From assembly GCA_001508005.1 (NCBI GenBank), contig LGEZ01000005.1, forward strand, positions 10,150 to 74,149: a stretch of DNA of 64,000 bases, given 5' to 3'. This DNA is from Clostridia bacterium 41_269. Lineage in GTDB: Bacteria; Bacillota; DTU086. The position numbers were made by a program, and so were the translations under genes. The notes under the pieces are model-generated. The model had not been told where the DNA came from. It did not search any database and worked only from the letters and a program-made list of their open reading frames with translations. This document shows positions 15,718 to 26,386 of the stretch, one piece after another (the first letter of the stretch is position 1; the number at the start of each line of letters is the position of its first letter).

Positions 15718-16962
15718 ATGAAAAGAGATGCAAAAAAGAGCATAGGTCTTCTCCTGTCCCTGCTAATTGTTCTCGGGGCCTCTGCCTGCAGTTTAGGAAA
15801 GGCTGAAGGTTCAGGAGAAATCATTGAAGTAAAAACAGCCGCCGCCGAAAAGGGAAGAGCCCAAAAAACCGTAGAGGTAACAGGTTCCCTTCTACCATCC
15901 AGAACAGTTGATATTGAAAGCAAGCTTACGGGCAGGGTAAGCAGTGTCCTGTGTGATGTGGGAGATAAAGTTCAGGCGGGGCAGCTGCTGCTCCAAGTAG
16001 ACGCAAAGGAACTTAAAGCCCAGTTTGAACAGGCTGCTGCCTCAGTGGAGCAGGCAGAACAGCAGGCAGGCCTCGCAAAGATTAATATTGAAACAGCAAA
16101 ACTTCAGCAGGAAACTGCGAGAATAGCAATGGAAAGGGCAAAACTGGAAAAGGAAAACGCACAGAAAAATTACAACCGCATTAAAACCCTTGCTGAAGCT
16201 GGGGTAGTATCCCAGAGTCAGTTAGAGGAAGCTGAGCTAAAACTTCAGCAGGCCCAAAAACAGTATGAAACAGCAGTTAGACAGTACAGGCTTGCTGAGA
16301 AACAGAAAGCCAGCGCAGAGAAGCAGTATGCCATCGCATCAGGTCCCGGCATTGCCCAGGCAGAAGCAGCAAAAAATGTAATAAAGGCACAGCTGGACAA
16401 CACCAGGATAACCTGTCCCATAACCGGTATCGTAACCAACAGATATATAAATCCCGGGGAGCTTGCCACCACAGGAGCAGCTCTACTTACAGTTGCTGAT
16501 ACTTCCTCACTAAAACTGAAGGGTACGGTAAAAGAAGACGTAATTCCATACCTACATCTGGGGCAGAAGGTCAGGATAGAAACGGACGCCCTTCCAGGTA
16601 GAGTTTATCACGGAAGAATAACTGAAATTGGGCCCCTGGCGGAATCCACAGGTCAGCTCTTTCCCCTTGAAGTTGCCGTTGACAATCCAGGACAGCTGAT
16701 GCCGGGAATGACTGCAAGGGCAGTAATTACCTTTAAAGGACCTGAAGGCATAGTGGTACCCCTTTCAGCTGTCAAAAATGAGAAGGGTAAAAACTATGTT
16801 TTCGTTATTGATGACAGGGACAGGGTTAAAAGAAAGGAAATTAAGCTGGGCTTCAAAGGTGATAAGGAAGCCGTTGTACTGAAGGGAATAAAACCAGGAG
16901 ACAGGGTCGCAGCTTCAAATATTGATCTTTTAAGGGATGGAATGCGAGTAAAGGATGTTTAG
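15718..16962 (+). CDS. efflux membrane fusion protein (periplasmic adaptor), lipoprotein
   Basis: 414 aa. Lipobox LGASAC, a long A/Q/E-rich coiled coil, and C-terminal beta-barrel domains. Confidence 0.85.
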   Translation: MKRDAKKSIGLLLSLLIVLGASACSLGKAEGSGEIIEVKTAAAEKGRAQKTVEVTGSLLPSRTVDIESKLTGRVSSVLCDVGDKVQAGQLLLQVDAKELKAQFEQAAASVEQAEQQAGLAKINIETAKLQQETARIAMERAKLEKENAQKNYNRIKTLAEAGVVSQSQLEEAELKLQQAQKQYETAVRQYRLAEKQKASAEKQYAIASGPGIAQAEAAKNVIKAQLDNTRITCPITGIVTNRYINPGELATTGAALLTVADTSSLKLKGTVKEDVIPYLHLGQKVRIETDALPGRVYHGRITEIGPLAESTGQLFPLEVAVDNPGQLMPGMTARAVITFKGPEGIVVPLSAVKNEKGKNYVFVIDDRDRVKRKEIKLGFKGDKEAVVLKGIKPGDRVAASNIDLLRDGMRVKDV

Positions 16963-17537
16963 CGGGTTCTTTCAGCCTTTCCAGGCAGCGTGTAAAGGAT
17001 CTCAACACTGAATCTTCTTGAGCAGCGCCGAATCATTTTAAATACCCTATCACCAAAGAGATAGTAAAAGATGCCGTTTCCCAGGGCATGGGCAGTATCA
17101 AACCAGAAGCTGGCAGCAAAAACTCCAAGGAGAGTTTTAAGATTTAAAGGTTCAACGAAAGCTGCCCAGTACCAGAGGTCGATGATCCAGCCGAAGAGGT
17201 ATCCCCAGAGAAAGGAAAAAGCAGTCATGCTTTTCCTGCCCATTTCAGGGAAAAGCCTTTTCATCATGCCCGCTGACATCCCGGCAAGCCCCCAGGACAG
17301 CATCTGCCATAGGGTCCACGGTCCCTGCCCGAGAAAAATATTGGAAACAAAAGCAGCAGTAGACCCCACCATAAATCCCGCCCTGCTGCCCAGGGCCCTG
17401 CCGGAAACGATAACCAAAAAGGTGGTGGGCTGAACACCCGGAATAAAGGCAAAAGGAAGGCGTCCTACTGCTGCAGCTGCGGCAAGCACTGCCACAAGAG
17501 CGATTTCTTTAGAAGAAGCAGCACCCTTTTCAAACAT
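16959..17537 (-). CDS. ECF transporter S (substrate-capture) component, candidate cobalamin-specific (CbrT-like)
   Basis: 192 aa, about 6 TM. IPGVQPTTFLVIVSGRALG matches the conserved S-component PxxPITLQT...AG..LG region. It is the last gene of the riboswitch-led operon. Confidence 0.65.
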   Translation of the reverse strand: MFEKGAASSKEIALVAVLAAAAAVGRLPFAFIPGVQPTTFLVIVSGRALGSRAGFMVGSTAAFVSNIFLGQGPWTLWQMLSWGLAGMSAGMMKRLFPEMGRKSMTAFSFLWGYLFGWIIDLWYWAAFVEPLNLKTLLGVFAASFWFDTAHALGNGIFYYLFGDRVFKMIRRCSRRFSVEILYTLPGKAERTR

Positions 17538-17706
17538 CAGGTAAAAAACACCAGGGAAGCTGCCGCAGCAAAAATAAGCATGAGCCCAGGATTCTGGGCT
17601 TTAATATTTATCCGCACCATCAGAAAAACCGTTAAAAAAACCGCTGCTCCTGTAAATATCTTCTTATAAACAGACTCCACGTCTCTACCTCCCTTTTCGT
17701 TCCCCT

Positions 17707-19392
17707 TCATCCGGCACTGGAAATGATGGGACCGAGCACTTCCAGAGCCTCCTCTACCGTTGTGATCCCCTCTGCAAAGCCCCGGCACAGCTTCCCCATC
17801 TGAGTTGAATAAAAAAGGGAGCGGCTGAAAACTTCCCGTGCTTCTCCATCGCACACCTTCTCTCCACCGTGAATGATCACTGCTCTTTGTGCAAACTGGG
17901 AAGCAAACTCCACATCATGGGTGGCCATCATTACCGTAATTCCCTGTTCTTTAAGCTCTACCAGAAAATTTCCCAGCTTCATCTTTAAAAACCAGTCAAG
18001 ACCCCTGGTGGGCTCATCCAGAAGGAGAAGGGAAGGACGGAGAACCAGCACCGAAGCCAGGGCTGCCCTCTGCTGCTCTCCACTGCTCAAATCCCTGGGG
18101 TTGGCTTTTCGGCATGCATCAAGTCCCAGCTTTTTCAGAAGGTAATCCACTATGCCGTCATCCTTTAACCCAAAATTTTTCAGAGTAAAGAGGAGTTCCT
18201 CCTCCACGGTGTCCCTGAAAAGATAATCGCTGGGATTCTGGGAAAGGTATGCCACACCTCCGGGAAAAGAGAAGGTGGGGTTCTGGGCCTTTTTTTCCTG
18301 ACTGCAGTGGAATTCCACTCTTCCCTTACTGGGCGCAGCCAATCTCGCCATGACCCTCAAAAGGGTGGTTTTGCCCGCACCGTTTTCTCCAAGAACAGCC
18401 GCAAATTCCCCCATGTCCAATTTAAGGTCTATTCCCTCCAGAGCCCGCCTGCCGTTGGGGTAAATAAAGGAAACATTTTTTAGCTCCATGAGCCTTCCTT
18501 TCTCGCAGGAGAAATTCTCAGCAAAAGTTTTCCCTTTAATTTCCGCCGGAAGACTTTTTCCGTCAAGCCTTTCCTTAAGCACCCTGCGCCCTTCCTTAAC
18601 AGTAAGGGGCACCGGGGAAATGCCCAGCTCGTAAAAGAATCGGCACACGGGAGGAATTAAAACAAGCCCTTCTTTAGGGCACCTCTTTACCATTTCCTGG
18701 GGAGTACCGCAGAACAAAGCCCTACCTCCATCCATAAAAAGTACCCTGTCCGCCAGATGAAGACACCTTTCCAGCCTCTGCTCAATTAAAATCACCGTAA
18801 TACCCAGTTCCTCGTTTATACGCTTAATAAGGTTCAATATTTCCTCTGCCGAAGGAGGATCCAGCTGGGATGTAGGTTCATCAAAAATGAGGACCCTGGG
18901 CTCCATGGCAAGGACCGACGATATGACCAGCTTCTGCTTGATTCCTCCAGAAAGCTCAGAGGTGGGAACATCCTTCACCGCTGTAAGCCCCATAAAGGCC
19001 ATTACTTCAGCTATGCGGCGCCCCATTACATCCCGGGAAAGCCCAAGATTTTCTAAACCGAAGGATATTTCTGCTTCCACCTCCGTCATCACCAGCTGAT
19101 TTTCTGGGTCCTGGAAGACCATTCCTATTTCTCCCGGGGGCACCCTCCTGCGGTCCCTTATCATATCAATGCCCCGATAAAAAACACTGCCCCCTATTCT
19201 ACCACCATAAAAATCAAGGAGCAGCCCTGCCAAAAGCTTTGCCAGGGTGGACTTTCCGGACCCCGATCCTCCTATTATAAGGAAAAATTCCCCCTCGAAA
19301 ATGGACAGATCAATGTCCTCAAGGGCCGGCACACTTCTTTCCGGATAAAAATAAGTCAAATTTTCGATCTCAAATAATGCCATCTCTCCCAC
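17707..19392 (-). CDS. ECF transporter ATPase, fused EcfA-EcfA' (two ABC domains)
   Basis: 561 aa. Two Walker A motifs (GGSGSGKST and GENGAGKTT), two LSGG signatures and two H-loops. Confidence 0.9.
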   Translation of the reverse strand: MGEMALFEIENLTYFYPERSVPALEDIDLSIFEGEFFLIIGGSGSGKSTLAKLLAGLLLDFYGGRIGGSVFYRGIDMIRDRRRVPPGEIGMVFQDPENQLVMTEVEAEISFGLENLGLSRDVMGRRIAEVMAFMGLTAVKDVPTSELSGGIKQKLVISSVLAMEPRVLIFDEPTSQLDPPSAEEILNLIKRINEELGITVILIEQRLERCLHLADRVLFMDGGRALFCGTPQEMVKRCPKEGLVLIPPVCRFFYELGISPVPLTVKEGRRVLKERLDGKSLPAEIKGKTFAENFSCEKGRLMELKNVSFIYPNGRRALEGIDLKLDMGEFAAVLGENGAGKTTLLRVMARLAAPSKGRVEFHCSQEKKAQNPTFSFPGGVAYLSQNPSDYLFRDTVEEELLFTLKNFGLKDDGIVDYLLKKLGLDACRKANPRDLSSGEQQRAALASVLVLRPSLLLLDEPTRGLDWFLKMKLGNFLVELKEQGITVMMATHDVEFASQFAQRAVIIHGGEKVCDGEAREVFSRSLFYSTQMGKLCRGFAEGITTVEEALEVLGPIISSAG

Positions 19393-20328: not shown

Positions 20329-21033
20329 TTAAGGCTTTAAAGAATCCCATGACGGACCCCGAAAGTTACTGCCCGCACTGTACCACCATATAATTTTATC
20401 TCCCCCTTTAACGGACATCTTACCAGCAGAAATGCTGGGAATTCTATCATTCACCTTGTACATCCATCCGCTCATCCCCTCATTTTTCTGCCCTTCCACC
20501 GATGTTACAAAGTCTCCATAGAGGGGGCTTATGGTAAAACTTAATCCTGTAGCTTCCAAGGCACCCAGAGCCGTGATCCCCCACCTGCTGTTTTCATTTA
20601 AGGTTACGAAGGAAGGACCAAAAAGCAGCTCGCCATTTTTTCCTACCACAGCAATCCAGACTTTTGTACCGCCTGATTTTTCTGCATCCTTTAGGTCCCT
20701 TTTTTGCTCTGAAAAATCTTTTTTCTGCTGCCCCTCTTTACTTCCAAAACCCTCTTTGCTTCTGCTCTCGTGCCCCGCAGTGCTTCCGCTGCTTTCCCTT
20801 TTATCCTCAAAAGAGGCTTGGTCTCTTTCTGAAACTTCATTTCCTTGGGCAGTTACTTTTTCTTCTGGCTTTTCTTCATCTACAGAAGCAGGTTTCTGAA
20901 CTTCCTTTAAAGTCAAGGAGTTCTTTAAATCATCAGAAGAAACTCCGTTAAAATGGCTGTATAGGGGAGGGCCCAAAAGGGCCAGCACCAGCACCAAAAA
21001 CGCAGCAAAGTAATGCCACCTTTTTTTGAACAT
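20329..21033 (-). CDS. signal-anchored DUF4430 (transcobalamin beta-domain-like) protein
   Basis: 234 aa. N-terminal hydrophobic anchor, a long E/K/S-rich linker, and a C-terminal block (GWMYKVNDRIPSISAGKMSVKGGDKIIWWYS) nearly identical to a block in the upstream 863-aa protein. Confidence 0.7.
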   Translation of the reverse strand: MFKKRWHYFAAFLVLVLALLGPPLYSHFNGVSSDDLKNSLTLKEVQKPASVDEEKPEEKVTAQGNEVSERDQASFEDKRESSGSTAGHESRSKEGFGSKEGQQKKDFSEQKRDLKDAEKSGGTKVWIAVVGKNGELLFGPSFVTLNENSRWGITALGALEATGLSFTISPLYGDFVTSVEGQKNEGMSGWMYKVNDRIPSISAGKMSVKGGDKIIWWYSAGSNFRGPSWDSLKP

Positions 21034-21061: not shown

Positions 21062-23653
21062 CTACTCCCATCCTTCCATCAGCACTCTGTATATCAGCAC
21101 CGCTGCTTCAGCCCTTTTTATAGCATTCTTCGGCCCAAATGTCCCATCTTCATAGCCCTTTATAAGACCGCGCTCCACTGCAGAAGCAACGGCTGTCCCT
21201 GCCCAGGGAGAAATGCTGGAAGCATCCTTAAATGAAAGAAGACCTTTTTCTTCCGTTTTTTCTCCCAATGCCCTCATCAGCATTACAGCGGCTTCTTCCC
21301 TGCTTATGCGGATGTATGGCCTAAAGGTGCCGTCTTCGTACCCTTTAATTATACCTTTTGCCGCGGACAGCATTACTGCATCATAAAACCAGCGGTCTTT
21401 TCCAACATCTTTAAATTCCCCATGGGGCAGTACTTCTATCTCACATTTTTCTTTAATTTCCAGAGCTCTCAGCAGCATTGCAGCAAATTCTGCCCTTGTG
21501 ACATCTTTACCGGGCTCAAAGTTTCCCCGTCCTGTTCCCTCAATGATACCAGCGCCACCAAGGAGCTCCACTGCATCGGAAGCCCAATTATATGCTTTTT
21601 TATCTCCCACATCACTAAAATACATCCTTTTTTCCTTTACAAATACCGCAGTACTGGATAATTCTTCAACAGCCCCAAAAACTACGCTTTGGGAAGCATC
21701 AAAAACGCAGGGCAGAGCCGTCCAGCTCTTCTTTTCCATGTCATATTGTGCCAGGACAACATCATCAGCCTTTGACAGTGGAGGAAGGAAAACTTTAAGA
21801 TAGAACACCGCTGGTGATCTGAGCTTTATACCTTCGGGTTCCAGGCAGTAAACAGGTGTAATAAGACGAAATCCCTGGGGTTCAGGATATACAGAGTCTT
21901 CTCCCACTTCCCGCACTGAAACTTCAGCTTCTTCAGCAAAGGATTTCCCTGGAACCACAAGAGCCGCCTCAAATCCGTCGGTAACAACCCCTCCCCTTTC
22001 AGGGTCCACTTTCATATTTATTTCAACAACATTCTTATCCAGCTTCCTTTTTAAAGCCAACCTCTCGTCAGCAGCGGGCATTAAATCTTCCCCTACTACG
22101 ACCACTGTTCTCCCTGCCTCTTCAATTTTCCCAAGGGTTTTTACTCTTTTTTTCAAGCCCAGCAAAGTGTACAAATTTTCGAAAGCATTTAACGCATTAT
22201 TTGAAACTTTAAGTGAAGGGGAAAGTTTTTCAACCTGTGCCGCAATTTCTTCAGAAATAACTTCCGTATTGTCGGCTTCCTCAAGCTGAAGCAGGTCCTC
22301 CCAGTCAGGACCCACAGAATCCAAACTGGTGCTGTACCACCAGATTACCTTATCTCCCTCGTCCACCTCGTAGTCCTTTGCCGATACAGAAGGAATATCA
22401 TCGTTTACCTTATACATCCAACCGCTTAAACCCTTGTTTGCCAAGCCACAAATTGAAGTAACAAAACCGTCCCACCTGCTGGACACCTCATAGGGAAGCC
22501 CCGTGGCATCGAGGGCTCCAAGGGCTGTCGCTCCCCAGGGATTGTCGGGATCAATGTCCACATAATCTGGGCCAAAAAAAATTTCGTTGTTTAAGCCCAC
22601 TACACCTACACCGACGGTAATGGCTTTTTGCTGCACTTCACCTCGGGGCTGCTGGGGCCAGTTATTATTCCCCTGGTAATCCGGCAGTAAATCTCCAAGA
22701 ATTAAATACGCATACAATGCCCAAGTGGCGTCCATTGTGTTCCTGACTTCTCCGAAGCTTCCGTCACTGTTTAAAGCATCTTCTATCATATAATCAATAG
22801 CGCTTTTGCCCTCAGAACTTTTCCACGAAGACGGGTCCCTTCCCCAAATTTTCAGGGTAACAATAACCTCAACCGTATCAATTAAAGCGTCATCCCAGGA
22901 AGAAGCCTCAAAGCTCCCGTCAGCGTTCTGTTTTCCCCGCATCCAATCAAGCCCTGCATTAACTGCCTGCTGAACGTCACTGGCGCTTTTTATATTCTCA
23001 GGCAGTGCCTTTAGTATGCGCAGAGCCTGGGCAGTAGCCATAAAATCGGGGTAAAAGGCGCTTCCCCAGCTGGCCCCCCATGAGCCGTAGCTTTCTGCCT
23101 CCTTATCCGTACATTGGCTGCTTAAAACATAACTTTTTACCTGCTCAGCATTCAAAATGCTTAAAAGCCCTGCTTGCGCCAGAGCATCAAGGGCTGCAAA
23201 GTCGCTGTATATATTTCCGTCAAAGCCCCTGTCCTCGCTCCATCTGCTGAAAAGAATACCCTTAAGCTGTGCGGACAGATCTTTGTACCCCCACTTTTCC
23301 GCCGCAAGAATGTGATGGGCTATTTCTTTAGCAGAAACCCCCTCTGGGTTTTTAACAATATCCTGGGCTTTATTTAATATCACCTGCTTTAAGGAAAGTC
23401 CTTCGTAGGTCCACTTCTGAACGGAAACATCCTCCCCAGCCAGGGTAAGCACATAGGCATCATAGGCTGATAACTTACTGCCGCTTACGTAAGCATTAAG
23501 GTTGAACTCCACAGCTTTTGAAATGAGCTGTTCATAGGTAGAAGCCGCCCCTGTACTGAAAGGGAGCCCCATTAAAACTAATAAAATGACAAGGATAAAA
23601 ACAGAAACAGATTTCAGTAAAATGGAGCCTCTAAATCTTTTTATTACCCCCAC
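21062..23653 (-). CDS. SLH-anchored surface protein: alpha/alpha-toroid (terpenoid cyclase/prenyltransferase-like) domain + DUF4430 + three C-terminal SLH repeats. I propose it is a transcobalamin/intrinsic-factor-like B12-capture protein.
   Basis: 863 aa. GTG start after AAAGGGAGG, then a signal peptide. DGSFE/DGSFGE repeat motifs. DUF4430 block GWMYKVNDDIPSVSAKDYEVDEGDKVIWWYS. Three SLH motifs (FSDVGDKKAYNW..., FKDVGKDRWFYDAV..., FKDASSISPWAGTAV...). It is the first gene after the B12 riboswitch. Confidence 0.8.
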   Translation of the reverse strand: MGVIKRFRGSILLKSVSVFILVILLVLMGLPFSTGAASTYEQLISKAVEFNLNAYVSGSKLSAYDAYVLTLAGEDVSVQKWTYEGLSLKQVILNKAQDIVKNPEGVSAKEIAHHILAAEKWGYKDLSAQLKGILFSRWSEDRGFDGNIYSDFAALDALAQAGLLSILNAEQVKSYVLSSQCTDKEAESYGSWGASWGSAFYPDFMATAQALRILKALPENIKSASDVQQAVNAGLDWMRGKQNADGSFEASSWDDALIDTVEVIVTLKIWGRDPSSWKSSEGKSAIDYMIEDALNSDGSFGEVRNTMDATWALYAYLILGDLLPDYQGNNNWPQQPRGEVQQKAITVGVGVVGLNNEIFFGPDYVDIDPDNPWGATALGALDATGLPYEVSSRWDGFVTSICGLANKGLSGWMYKVNDDIPSVSAKDYEVDEGDKVIWWYSTSLDSVGPDWEDLLQLEEADNTEVISEEIAAQVEKLSPSLKVSNNALNAFENLYTLLGLKKRVKTLGKIEEAGRTVVVVGEDLMPAADERLALKRKLDKNVVEINMKVDPERGGVVTDGFEAALVVPGKSFAEEAEVSVREVGEDSVYPEPQGFRLITPVYCLEPEGIKLRSPAVFYLKVFLPPLSKADDVVLAQYDMEKKSWTALPCVFDASQSVVFGAVEELSSTAVFVKEKRMYFSDVGDKKAYNWASDAVELLGGAGIIEGTGRGNFEPGKDVTRAEFAAMLLRALEIKEKCEIEVLPHGEFKDVGKDRWFYDAVMLSAAKGIIKGYEDGTFRPYIRISREEAAVMLMRALGEKTEEKGLLSFKDASSISPWAGTAVASAVERGLIKGYEDGTFGPKNAIKRAEAAVLIYRVLMEGWE

Positions 23654-23859
23654 AGGCAGTTTCCTCCCTTTAAATTTTTACGCCGTAAAAATTTAAAAAG
23701 GCTGCAGCTTCAAACCACCCCCTTTTTGACCATCAGGATGGGGCAGAAAGCCGACAGCCTTTTTTGAGCAGAAAATCCCCCAAACCCGAAAAAACCAATC
23801 CGCTTTTTCGGCATAAAAGCAAAAACCCTGCTCCTAAGCAAGCAGGGGCCAAGGCCTTC

Positions 23860-24040: not shown

Positions 24041-24204
24041 TTTTTTAAATTATAACCGATGGAAAAAAACGGGTCAACAGGGACCAAATGCTGACCCTTT
24101 AGCTTAGCGAGGAAATAATTAACACCCTTTTTAATATGACAGAACCTCCTTCGGCCACATATTATGTGTTTAGTATACAATATGTAATTTAAGGAGGACC
24201 TTTA

Positions 24205-25017
24205 ATGTCAATAACAATTACTGTGTTCCCTGGAAAAGACAAAGCAAATCTTAAGGAAAACTTTAAACCCATCACCTTTATCAGTGGGGAAAGTGTTTCC
24301 ATTGTGGGACCCACAGGAAGCGGCAAAACAGCTTTTATTAACGATATTGAACTCCTTGCCCAAGGGGATACCGTAACGGGCCGTACCGTTATGATCAACG
24401 GGCAGTATCCTTCAGATGAGTACCGGCACAATCCCGCCGTTAAACCCATAGTCATGATCACCCAAAATACCAAATGCTTCACCGATCTTACCGTGGAAGA
24501 GTTCATCCTTACCCATGCCAGGGCTAGAAAAAAGGAAGGGCCCAAAATAGCGGCATTAACAATAGAGATGGCTAACCTCTTTACTGGAGAAAAAATTTCC
24601 GAAAAAATGCGGGTTACATCTCTTTCAGGGGGACAGACAAGGGCCCTTATGATTGCCGACGCCATAACTGTGGGAGCTGCACCCATTATCCTGCTGGATG
24701 AAGTTGAAAATGCAGGCATTTTTAAACATAAGGTGATAGAAGTGATTAAAAATACGGATAAAATTATCATTTTCGTAACCCATGACCCCGTTATTGCCCT
24801 GCTTACGGATAAAAGAATAGTAATGAAAAATGGTGCTGTTAAGAAGGTCATCAACCAAAGCAAAAAAGAACTTTGGGCTGCCAAAGTGCTAATAGATCTT
24901 GACCAAAAAATGGGGATGATCCGCGAAGAACTGCGCCGGGGAAACATTATTTCTGAGGAAATCCTTGGAATTATAGGGCTTGAAGCCGGCGTAGTAACAA
25001 GCGCGGAGGTGGTTTAA
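24205..25017 (+). CDS. stand-alone ABC-type ATPase (no adjacent permease)
   Basis: 270 aa. Walker A GPTGSGKT, signature LSGGQ, Walker B ILLDEVENA, H-loop VTHD. Confidence 0.85.
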   Translation: MSITITVFPGKDKANLKENFKPITFISGESVSIVGPTGSGKTAFINDIELLAQGDTVTGRTVMINGQYPSDEYRHNPAVKPIVMITQNTKCFTDLTVEEFILTHARARKKEGPKIAALTIEMANLFTGEKISEKMRVTSLSGGQTRALMIADAITVGAAPIILLDEVENAGIFKHKVIEVIKNTDKIIIFVTHDPVIALLTDKRIVMKNGAVKKVINQSKKELWAAKVLIDLDQKMGMIREELRRGNIISEEILGIIGLEAGVVTSAEVV

Positions 25018-25724
25018 TGAAACTTTTAATTATTGCAGGTCCTCCCTCCTCTGGAAAAACCGCTTTGGCTAAACAGATCATAAAAAATTTAGGTTATTGC
25101 TTAAAAATTTCCTTCTTAAAGATTGATGTGGTAAAGGCCTTTGAAGATGAAGAACTTAAGAAGGAATTTAATATTGAAACTATGAAGGTGTATTCAGGGG
25201 ATCTGTGTCCCGATCATGCGGAAGTAATGGTTCTGGGAGATGCTGTTTCGTGGGCAGAAAACTTAAAATCGGACCTATTGATAGTTGAAAGCGCAGGGCT
25301 CTGCTTAAGATGTTCTCCTTACCTAAATCAGGGATTGGGAATAGTGGTACTGGACGCCATCTCCGGCATTCATGCCCCTGCAAAAATGGGACCCATGGTG
25401 AGCCTGGCAGATATAGCCGTAGTAACAAAGATCGATCTGGTTAGCCAGGCGGAAAGGGAAGTGTTCAGGCAGAAAATTTTTGAAATTAATCCTGAAATTC
25501 AGATGTTTGAGACAAATGCCCTTTACGGCACTTCCCTGCAGTTCCTCTATCGCAAAATTCTTATGTCGGACCCCATAAATCCTGAAACCCTTAAACTTAA
25601 GGGGGTTCCGCCCATAGGCACCTGCACCATATGTGTGGGGAGAAAGGAAATCGGATGGAAGCACCACTTCGGCATAGTAAAAAAACTTGATCAGTGCAGT
25701 GAATATCTCTACAGGGGGGAGTAA
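25017..25724 (+). CDS. G3E-family P-loop GTPase (HypB/UreG/MeaB-like metallochaperone)
   Basis: 235 aa. Walker A GPPSSGKT. LLIVESAGLCL...VVLDAISG...VVTKIDL parallels HypB ENVGNLVCP...VLSVTEG...VINKIDL. Start codon overlaps the stop of the ABC ATPase. Confidence 0.75.
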   Translation: MKLLIIAGPPSSGKTALAKQIIKNLGYCLKISFLKIDVVKAFEDEELKKEFNIETMKVYSGDLCPDHAEVMVLGDAVSWAENLKSDLLIVESAGLCLRCSPYLNQGLGIVVLDAISGIHAPAKMGPMVSLADIAVVTKIDLVSQAEREVFRQKIFEINPEIQMFETNALYGTSLQFLYRKILMSDPINPETLKLKGVPPIGTCTICVGRKEIGWKHHFGIVKKLDQCSEYLYRGE

Positions 25725-25726
25725 CC

Positions 25727-26386
25727 ATGGGTGAAAAAGGAATAAAATGGCTGCCTCCCGGGAAGAACTGCGGACTATGCGGGTTAAAAACCTGCAGCCT
25801 CTTTGCAGCTCTTGTTGAAGCAGGAATTAAGAACCCCAAGGACTGTCCCTATTACCTTGAAGCAAAAAGTCCCAAAGAAAAAAATCTTCCGGAATATATA
25901 GAACACGAAGCCCTTTTCCCTGAAAGAGATGTATTGGGGAAAGAATTTGATTTTATTCTCCATCCCCTGCCGGGGGAAATTTCTGCACGAAAAATCATAC
26001 TGCCCTTCAGAAGCAATCTGGTGGATACCAGGAAAATAGTTCCAGGAGATATAGTTATGGGAAGGCCCATGGGGGCGGGCTGCCCCATCCCCCATGTTCT
26101 TAAAGTTATAAAAGCTGAACCCCTAACGGGACTTCTCCATACCTGGGTAGTGGGTCCAAAATACTCTCGAGAAGGAAAAGTAAAAATTAAAGATCTTTCC
26201 GCCTACCACATGGTGGGATTTGAAGGAATTGCCCGAAATATAAAAAGGGAACCCACTTTTGGAATGAGACAGAGATTTCTTCCAGGATTCTGCATGATGA
26301 CCTTAAGCCATACGGGAATCATCAACATGATTCTTGTTAAAAAAAGCGGGCTTCACGTACGAATAGAAGATATCAGGATTATGTAG
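25727..26386 (+). CDS. protein with an N-terminal Cys4 putative [4Fe-4S] domain (CFeSP-large-subunit / RnfB N-terminal type) and an uncharacterised C-terminal domain
   Basis: 219 aa. PPGKNCGLCGLKTCSLFA...KDCPYY matches the CX2CX4C...C 'putative Fe-S cluster' domain. Sits 2 nt after the GTPase gene. Confidence 0.65.
   Translation: MGEKGIKWLPPGKNCGLCGLKTCSLFAALVEAGIKNPKDCPYYLEAKSPKEKNLPEYIEHEALFPERDVLGKEFDFILHPLPGEISARKIILPFRSNLVDTRKIVPGDIVMGRPMGAGCPIPHVLKVIKAEPLTGLLHTWVVGPKYSREGKVKIKDLSAYHMVGFEGIARNIKREPTFGMRQRFLPGFCMMTLSHTGIINMILVKKSGLHVRIEDIRIM

Follow-up and report, generated by a model that had tools for sequence, protein, structure and literature searches.

A membrane-tethered transcobalamin-beta-like protein is a probable accessory corrinoid binder of a B12-riboswitch-controlled ECF importer in a Clostridia bacterium

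We analyzed a 64,000-nucleotide (nt) stretch of the genome of Clostridia bacterium 41_269 (NCBI GenBank assembly GCA_001508005.1, contig LGEZ01000005.1, positions 10,150 to 74,149 of the forward strand), hereafter the window, in which an earlier note made from the sequence alone had marked the gene of a 234-amino-acid (aa) DUF4430 protein. We found that this protein joins an N-terminal hydrophobic segment and a long disordered linker to a C-terminal domain modelled with the fold of the transcobalamin (TC) beta domain, and that its gene lies in an operon for an energy-coupling factor (ECF) importer downstream of a cobalamin riboswitch. We propose that the protein is an accessory extracytoplasmic corrinoid binder of this dedicated, B12-riboswitch-repressed importer of the ECF-CbrT type. 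We give this reading, including the mechanism proposed below, a probability of about 0.6. That the protein serves a corrinoid system as an accessory binder, however it works, we regard as highly likely.

Architecture and fold of the 234-aa protein

The open reading frame (ORF) begins with an ATG at 21033 on the minus strand and ends with a stop codon at 20331-20329, and the span of 20329-21033 given in the earlier note is exact. We regard the ORF as a real gene because its product is identical to a database record ('Clostridia bacterium 41_269' XD50_0565) and because 55 further homologues of 176-282 aa share its three-part architecture. The note had described an N-terminal anchor, a charged linker and a C-terminal DUF4430 domain, and the AlphaFold2 (AF2) model, the composition and the Pfam match agree with this in every element. 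We discounted two ORFs that lie within the gene on the plus strand (20531..20899 and 20664..20951), since the homology lies entirely on the minus strand.

The sole Pfam match of the protein was PF14478 (DUF4430) at aa 154-219 (E=1.6e-14; 54.5 bits against a gathering cut-off of 23.8). No family of substrate-binding proteins (SBPs) was matched in Pfam, and no family of any kind in NCBIfam. Homologues carry the UniRef name 'Transcobalamin-like C-terminal domain-containing protein'. AF2 modelled residues 121-230 with a predicted local distance difference test score (pLDDT) of 92-98 and the last four residues at 86. The Foldseek matches of the modelled domain were a DUF4430 structure (3u7z), haptocorrin (4kki), the isolated human TC beta domain (5no0/5np4), 2pmv and 2bb5. 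They included full transcobalamins and intrinsic factor, with a probability of 1.00 throughout. TM-scores normalised to the isolated-domain targets (3u7z, 5no0 and 5np4) were 0.66-0.73, with a root-mean-square deviation (rmsd) of 2.4-3.3 A over ~103-108 columns, and identity to the TC-family beta structures was 13-18% in the structural alignments. By this model, the C-terminal domain has the fold of the transcobalamin/intrinsic-factor beta domain and not that of the two-lobed SBPs. Residues 1-121 consist of a transmembrane helix and a disordered linker, with no alpha toroid in the same chain. Searches of the PDB with the full-length profile returned only ATP synthase subunit b, calnexin and similar proteins, which we rejected as compositional matches made through the transmembrane segment and the charged linker.

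Three motifs were found to be invariant in the beta domains of the family: GWMYxVN, D(K/R)(V/I)IWWYS (DxxIWWYS) and WGxTALGALxATG. The first two are candidate sites of corrinoid contact. The earlier note had called the DUF4430 block of the protein almost collinear with that of an 863-aa protein encoded next to it. Pairwise BLASTP gave a gap-free alignment with 57/108 identities (53%) between aa 125-232 of the 234-aa protein and aa 347-454 of its neighbour (E=1e-36). Across genomes, the beta domains of the short and the long paralogues were 51% identical within a genome and 49% identical between genomes, and presumably bind the same ligand in the same way.

An operon with an S-layer paralogue and an ECF importer

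The elements of the operon follow one another on the minus strand in the order promoter, riboswitch, terminator, 863-aa gene, 234-aa gene, ECF-T, A-A' and S (coordinates in Table 1). The terminator-like hairpin is likely the expression platform of the riboswitch. The 863-aa and 234-aa genes are separated by 28 nt and the 234-aa gene and ECF-T by 34 nt, while the T and A-A' genes overlap by 37 nt; no strong internal terminator was found within the operon. The 234-aa gene is thus predicted to be co-transcribed with the 863-aa gene and the genes for ECF T, A-A' and the CbrT-like S component. The S component matched chain A of PDB 6FNP, the cobalamin transporter ECF-CbrT, over residues 11-161 (E=7.3e-12). 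The gene thus shares an operon with T, A/A' and S genes, the S component being of the CbrT family, and has a cobalamin riboswitch upstream; these are two of the features by which an accessory component of such a transporter would be recognized.

The 863-aa protein comprises a signal or transmembrane leader helix, an alpha toroid, a hinge, a beta domain, a middle region and three S-layer homology (SLH) repeats. AF2 modelled its residues 1-470 with a mean pLDDT of 85.8, placing a 12-helix alpha toroid at 39-320 and the beta domain at 345-445, with the hinge (325-342) at low confidence. The top 14 PDB matches of this model in Foldseek were all full-length haptocorrin, transcobalamin or intrinsic factor, aligned over ~433-466 columns; the large rmsd of these alignments arises because the angle between the domains differs. 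The neighbour therefore models as a complete alpha+beta transcobalamin-like protein anchored by three SLH repeats. Together with the separate domain of the 234-aa protein, this means that the operon appears to encode one full transcobalamin-like protein and one stand-alone beta domain.

The ECF-T protein is longer than its Pfam family. The CbiQ match stops at residue 228, leaving a C-terminal extension of ~80 residues with extra hydrophobic helices and the conserved ending (S/G/N)WGWxxWxxL(K/R)(S/L)KI, which was also seen in the comparison loci L009, L017 and L020. The anchor helix of the tethered protein could conceivably dock on this extension.

Conservation of the operon in close relatives

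We compared 80 loci, with one genome per species, using tblastn with the operon proteins, hidden Markov models (HMMs) of the beta and alpha domains on all ORFs, and Rfam for riboswitches. Close relatives contributed 21 loci, from Moorella, Thermovorax, Desulfovirgula, Desulfotomaculum, Pelotomaculum, Tepidanaerobacteraceae and others. Genes for ECF-T, A-A' and a CbrT-like S component were found on the same strand in 19 of the 21. Each of these 19 loci, all from Bacillota, has a membrane-tethered DUF4430 gene upstream of ECF-T. The anchor is a transmembrane segment in 17 of them (proteins of 214-272 aa with a linker and a C-terminal beta domain) and a lipid in two. The tethered gene immediately adjoins ECF-T in 13 of the 19, and an alpha-only gene stands between the two in the other six. 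A large alpha+beta protein, usually with SLH repeats, was present in every close locus that reaches far enough upstream. Of the 19 close loci scanned for riboswitches, 14 have an upstream RF00174 on the same strand; the remaining five end early on the upstream side. In three loci (L007 3918-4425, L012 3698-4238 and L013 3135-3660), tandem full-length cobalamin aptamers were found upstream of the orthologous operon, and L013 has a third copy on the opposite strand.

The two lipid-anchored cases are L017 (3697-4893) and L020 (2006-3010), where the gene directly before ECF-T encodes a lipoprotein (lipobox LGACAC and VPACAQ, respectively) with a linker and DUF4430. These lipoproteins carry an additional C-terminal domain of ~200 residues without a Pfam match. 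In the complete genome of Heliomicrobium modesticaldum, the gene order is CbiZ, a 1172-aa DUF4430+SLH protein, a 243-aa DUF4430 protein, CbiQ, ABC-ABC and ECF S. The CbiZ gene (PF01955; L081 3528-4352, strain Ice1) lies directly upstream of the alpha+beta SLH gene. CbiZ is the adenosylcobinamide amidohydrolase of corrinoid salvage, and its presence would point to salvage or remodelling of imported corrinoids.

Genes encoding an alpha domain alone adjoin the short beta gene in seven loci (L009, L010, L013, L014, L015, L018 and L021) and precede the alpha+beta gene in three (L001, L008 and L011). Their products, of 460-590 aa, combine a prenyltransferase/squalene-cyclase-like toroid with Cu_amine_oxidN1 or SLH. 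Transcobalamin is thus carried by bacteria both fused and split inside one operon. This raises the question of whether the tethered beta domain closes in trans on an alpha domain, either that of the 863-aa protein or that of a separate alpha-only protein, to form a split transcobalamin acting as a membrane-anchored high-affinity trap. Besides the alpha-only genes, two observations are consistent with this: the separately expressed alpha and beta halves of human TC assemble only when cobalamin is present (PMC5599065), and L. sakei has exactly such a pair of a beta-only and an alpha-only protein (bioRxiv 10.1101/864751). However, the operon of the 234-aa gene has no alpha-only gene, and its one alpha domain already has a beta domain in cis. 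Many ECF-linked loci also have a beta-only protein with no alpha domain detected, although the alpha HMM may miss distant ones. We therefore consider a split transcobalamin unlikely here.

Distant loci and family census

The order of a DUF4430 gene followed by ECF T/A/S was also found in 15 more distant loci, labelled Eggerthella, Slackia, Senegalimassilia, Hugonella, Sharpea, Lachnospiraceae and Oscillospiraceae, with some Prevotella/Alloprevotella bins. A B12 riboswitch (RF00174 or AdoCbl-II) lies upstream in 7 of the 14 distant ECF-linked DUF4430 loci scanned. In L024, the gene directly before ECF-T encodes a 236-aa protein in which ~110 residues of S/N/G/Q-rich linker connect a transmembrane segment to DUF4430 at the C-terminus. 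In L034 and L054, the N-terminus of the short DUF4430 protein is lipobox-like. Several lineages were found to have the tethered beta protein and the ECF module without a detected alpha+beta S-layer protein (with the same caveat that the alpha HMM may miss distant ones), and the tethered protein is therefore better seen as the transporter's core accessory binder than as a go-between.

The Eggerthella-like locus L024 (4992-9176) encodes, in order, an AdoCbl-II riboswitch, a 273-aa secreted protein without a Pfam match, a 462-aa PQQ-like beta-propeller with a C-terminal transmembrane segment, the tethered DUF4430 protein and ECF T/A-A'/S. The layout is similar in L022, L025 and L026. The presence of a beta-propeller among B12-regulated uptake genes is reminiscent of BtuG of Bacteroides, which has a propeller fold.

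When the beta domain was used in an exhaustive search, 820 cluster representatives were obtained at E<=1e-3. The best 150 of these (50%-identity representatives) comprised 65 short forms (170-300 aa) and 82 long forms. An N-terminal hydrophobic segment was found in 62 of the 65 short representatives and a lipobox-like motif in two. The earlier note had proposed a survey of the genomic context of PF14478 genes and held that its idea would fall if they showed no enrichment near B12 riboswitches or ECF modules. The survey revealed a strong association with both, in close and distant relatives alike. It extends over the subfamily of the 234-aa protein and many of the distant members, but the Pfam family as a whole does not share it.

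Membrane attachment and linker

In the protein, a hydrophobic stretch comes after a basic N-terminus (MFKKRW, containing KKR). Of all 19-residue windows, the one from residue 8 onward is the most hydrophobic (mean Kyte-Doolittle 1.85), and AF2 places a helix at residues 5-20. A lipoprotein reading was ruled out, as the protein contains no Cys at all and no lipobox. The likeness to substrate-binding lipoproteins drawn in the earlier note hence does not extend to lipid anchoring of this protein, but the analogy with a tethered binder stands, given the lipoproteins of L017 and L020 and the lipobox-like N-termini of L034 and L054. We consider the N-terminal segment most likely to be an uncleaved signal-anchor helix. 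Its hydrophobic core is ~18 residues long, and G-P-P takes the place of an A-x-A site. In the family of the protein, an N-terminal motif (MKRKLxYL...GPAxY) is conserved, and the majority-residue frequency is 0.54 in the N-terminal segment, 0.28 in the linker and 0.71 in the domain. The higher conservation of the motif than of the linker speaks for retention of the helix, which may contact a partner within the membrane.

Were the segment instead a cleaved signal peptide, the protein would be a soluble corrinoid scavenger of the wall zone or the extracellular space, with a disordered tail. Cleavage would indeed free it, since it has neither a lipobox nor LPXTG nor SLH, and many homologues have G-P-A after the hydrophobic core, a possible -3/-1 site. 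At the equivalent place the 234-aa protein has G-P-P, however, and Pro at -1 is disfavoured by signal peptidase I. The length of the core and the clearly higher conservation of the segment than of the linker also speak against a secreted form. So do the lipoproteins at the same position in L017 and L020 and the lipobox-like N-termini in L034 and L054, because such variants suggest that membrane attachment is itself a selected feature. A secreted scavenger is accordingly quite improbable.

The linker is disordered in the AF2 model. Its 94 residues include S14, E14, K13, D8 and G8, with 41% charged residues and a net charge of -5. Among 56 homologues its length is kept (median 95, range 39-122) but its sequence is not: the make-up shifts from S/E/K in the 234-aa protein to A/P/S/G/Q or N/S in others. 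Membrane attachment is likewise kept by different means: most lineages use a transmembrane helix, others a lipid anchor. The features that look selected are membrane attachment, a spacer constrained in length and free in sequence, and the N-terminal motif.

Coordinates and flanking features

Table 1 Features of the corrinoid-import operon in the window and alpha-only genes in the comparison loci.
Feature	Position	Strand	Evidence
234-aa membrane-tethered DUF4430 (transcobalamin-beta-like) protein gene, stop codon included	20329..21033	minus	ORF, Pfam, BLASTP, AF2, Foldseek
N-terminal hydrophobic segment, aa 5-27 (RWHYFAAFLVLVLALLGPPLYSH)	20953..21021	minus	AF2 helix 5-20; family conservation
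Disordered S/E/K/D/G-rich linker, aa 28-121	20671..20952	minus	pLDDT ~50, composition
Folded beta domain (DUF4430), aa 122-234	20332..20670	minus	pLDDT, Foldseek, motifs
863-aa S-layer protein gene	21062..23653	minus	Pfam, AF2, Foldseek
Sigma-70-like promoter TTGACC-17-TATAAT, directly upstream of riboswitch	24049..24077	minus	11/12 matches
Cobalamin riboswitch aptamer, RF00174	23880..24043	minus	106.9 bits, E=9e-26
Intrinsic-terminator-like hairpin, then T-run	23826..23847	minus	8 pairs
ECF T component (CbiQ family), 312 aa	19356..20294	minus	Pfam; synteny conserved
Fused ECF A-A' ATPase, 561 aa	17707..19392	minus	Pfam
ECF S component, 192 aa, homologue of cobalamin-specific CbrT	16959..17537	minus	Pfam ECF_trnsprt; PDB match
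Alpha-only genes by the short beta gene (comparison loci)	L009 8641-10059; L010 8935-10317; L013 8671-10068; L014 10330-11733; L015 2454-3842; L021 2785-4266		
Alpha-only genes ahead of the alpha+beta gene (comparison loci)	L001 2579-4222; L008 3238-4890; L011 2518-4278		

Between the genes for the fused ATPase and the S component lies a 57-aa ORF (MKGNEKGG...; 17537..17710, minus strand) with two hydrophobic stretches, whose stop codon overlaps the S start codon. It was considered as an extra subunit and rejected, because the corresponding gaps of L001-L021 (100-230 nt) contained no counterpart, and is probably spurious or lineage-specific. Divergent from the riboswitch promoter region, genes on the plus strand (24205..26386) encode a 270-aa ABC-type ATPase, a 235-aa GTPase of the CobW/HypB/UreG family and a 219-aa putative Fe-S-cluster-domain protein.

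Discussion

In the mechanism that we propose, the N-terminal helix would stay in the membrane as a signal anchor, and the spacer would give the beta domain the reach to move through the wall zone that separates the membrane from the S-layer. The lone beta domain would bind the nucleotide (lower) face of a corrinoid, as the isolated beta domain of human TC does. Judging from the human TC data, its affinity should lie below that of the closed alpha+beta binder. It could take up free ligand, accept ligand from the S-layer alpha+beta protein or, in some genomes, bind it jointly with an alpha-only partner. Back at the membrane, the domain would either raise the local corrinoid concentration at the CbrT-like S component or dock onto it, and the ECF module would then import the corrinoid. 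The isolated human TC beta domain retains cobalamin to the extent that extensive washing is needed to obtain the apo form, and it also binds cobinamide (PMC5599065). From these data and the behaviour of the separate halves, we infer that the tethered domain may bind corrinoid alone while sampling the space between membrane and S-layer.

The same parts could also form a brush, in which tethered beta domains concentrate corrinoids near the membrane, or pre-sort them by lower ligand, and never touch the transporter. A long linker free of sequence constraint would suit an entropic brush. The TC-family beta domain faces the side of the nucleotide with its dimethylbenzimidazole (DMB), and loss of the DMB contacts lowers the affinity of TC for cobinamide (PMC5599065). 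The strict adjacency to ECF-T and the conserved transmembrane motif, on the other hand, suggest a specific association with the transporter, and a brush differs from the preferred explanation by the docking step alone. We think it very improbable that the domains act purely in this way.

The accessory binder may also form part of a relay. That corrinoid passes from the S-layer protein to the tethered beta domain and on to the S component, as the earlier note had suggested, is a tentative idea with the odds somewhat against it. A more specific form is a cross-wall relay, in which the S-layer alpha+beta protein captures corrinoid at the surface, the tethered beta domain displaces the cis beta domain by trans alpha/beta assembly, and the corrinoid is delivered to the CbrT-like S component; this we consider doubtful. 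If true, this would give ECF transporters their first substrate-delivery protein. The system would then correspond, for B12, to the heme relay of Isd, and it would be a forerunner in bacteria of what transcobalamin and intrinsic factor do in animals.

Several points weigh against the accessory-binder reading or parts of it. The literature that we searched contained no binding or transport data on any bacterial DUF4430 protein, and neither the protein nor its beta-domain profile gave a sequence-level match in the PDB. The N-terminal segment may be a signal anchor or a cleaved signal peptide. The ECF-CbrT transporter of Lactobacillus delbrueckii carries out ATP-dependent uptake of cobalamin and cobinamide, and the available text of PMC5997447 describes no such accessory; an accessory DUF4430 protein is therefore probably not obligatory for uptake by ECF-CbrT. 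A full alpha+beta binder should hold its ligand far more tightly than a lone beta domain, and an inward hand-off would need a release mechanism, of which none is evident. A neighbour-joining tree and a per-column class consensus gave no class-specific residues between the beta domains of short and long paralogues, so that the direction of any transfer is not informed by them. The L. sakei operon has been reported as a heme importer (bioRxiv 10.1101/864751). Finally, ~44 loci, mostly labelled Collinsella, have a protein with a transmembrane segment, linker and DUF4430 and no ECF genes within 8 kb, and no riboswitch was found in 4 of 4 Collinsella-type loci scanned. In these loci, either the transporter is encoded elsewhere or the ligand differs.

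The Collinsella-type loci have a layout of their own. L043 (9-8237) and ~40 others, mostly labelled Collinsella, encode a surface protein of 1300-2447 aa in which several DUF4430-like repeats occur together with a region resembling a propeller. Downstream of this giant protein lies the gene of a 290-310-aa protein with a transmembrane segment, an S/D/K-rich linker and DUF4430.

The report on L. sakei and the Collinsella-type loci could be taken to mean that the ligand is not a corrinoid, and that heme or another tetrapyrrole is imported, as claimed for lsa1836-1840 of L. sakei. In that report (bioRxiv 10.1101/864751), the data from deletion and complementation are taken to show uptake of heme, for which docking was possible between the proteins Lsa1839 and Lsa1840. 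In the window and in 14 close relatives, however, a high-scoring cobalamin riboswitch stands over the operon. The S component is a homologue of CbrT, CbiZ is adjacent in Heliomicrobium, and the domain belongs to the fold family of the corrinoid-binding beta domain. A ligand other than a corrinoid is thus highly unlikely for the 234-aa protein.

The family is a concrete and conserved candidate for the capture of corrinoids and their passage across the Gram-positive wall and S-layer. It offers 65 or more short forms in the best 150 representatives, synteny in 19 of 19 loci and two kinds of membrane anchor. Bacteria encode the two halves of the animal B12 carriers, as one chain or as two, in operons under B12 control, which is relevant to how transcobalamin and intrinsic factor arose. 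The tethered protein also bears on how monoderm bacteria acquire B12 and on whether ECF transporters can use delivery proteins; to our knowledge, the textbook definition of these transporters is that they have no extracytoplasmic binding protein. The parts are small and soluble, which gives direct in vitro access to binding and transfer. The value of the present analysis lies in a defined architecture and in the comparative evidence.

Comparison with known systems

The idea of an accessory is not new, being known as a SEED annotation and as a hypothesis on L. sakei. Three aspects are not described in the literature that we found: the form with a transmembrane anchor and a long disordered linker, the constant place just before ECF-T across two phyla, and the systematic pairing with an S-layer-anchored, full transcobalamin-like paralogue.

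The SEED/RAST role 'Additional lipoprotein component of predicted cobalamin ECF transporter' is assigned, for example, to K8Q211 of L. rhamnosus (PMC9963975), apparently the same protein as the DUF4430 protein LGG_02295 encoded next to rtpR. Like the 234-aa protein, the protein with this role has DUF4430 and was annotated by genome context as an accessory of a CbrT-type ECF transporter, the role being a prediction. It is a lipoprotein of ~14 kDa without a long linker, whereas the 234-aa protein has a transmembrane anchor, a 94-residue spacer and an S-layer alpha+beta paralogue, and, having no Cys, lacks the lipobox of the SEED-type accessory. The link of such proteins to the 'CbrS / additional lipoprotein component' is presumed from PMC9963975 and the SEED subsystem.

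In L. sakei, the ECF-like operon lsa1836-1840 encodes the beta-like Lsa1839 and the alpha-like Lsa1840, and Verplaetse et al. proposed that these two scavenge the substrate and hand it to EcfS (available text of bioRxiv 10.1101/864751). Lsa1839 resembles the 234-aa protein in that it is exported and consists of a TC-beta-like part on its own, with the genes for ECF T, fused A-A' and S alongside. As far as that text goes, it differs in that the reported substrate is heme, the partner is an alpha-only protein and not a fused alpha+beta SLH protein, no riboswitch is mentioned and no long tether is described.

The ECF-CbrT transporter of L. delbrueckii (6FNP) has a homologous S component, and the same substrate class is expected for the operon described here. 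There, CbrT uses a shared (group II) ECF module (PMC5997447), whereas the operon of the 234-aa gene encodes a dedicated, riboswitch-controlled module with two DUF4430 proteins. BtuF, the periplasmic or lipoprotein B12 binder of BtuCD, is a functional analogue in capturing corrinoid outside the cytoplasm ahead of the transporter (PMC5997447). Unlike the 234-aa protein, it has a class III SBP fold and serves a type II ABC importer.

Two further systems are analogous in function or mechanism. The 234-aa protein has no NEAT match in a Pfam scan. BtuG is a surface B12 binder of Bacteroides that works with the TonB-dependent BtuB; it is a beta-propeller, unrelated in fold. In the Isd NEAT relay of Gram-positive bacteria, paralogous small domains at different depths of the envelope pass a tetrapyrrole (heme) inward to an ABC importer. 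The analogy is one of mechanism only, with sortase anchoring there and predicted SLH and transmembrane anchoring here.

The closest relatives in fold are the beta domains of transcobalamin (5NO0/5NP4), intrinsic factor (2PMV) and haptocorrin (4KKI), which belong to the same Pfam family as the domain of the 234-aa protein. The 234-aa protein differs from these carriers in being a separate polypeptide without an alpha domain, attached to the membrane through a 94-residue disordered linker. It is bacterial and paired with an ECF importer, whereas the animal carriers act through receptor-mediated endocytosis.

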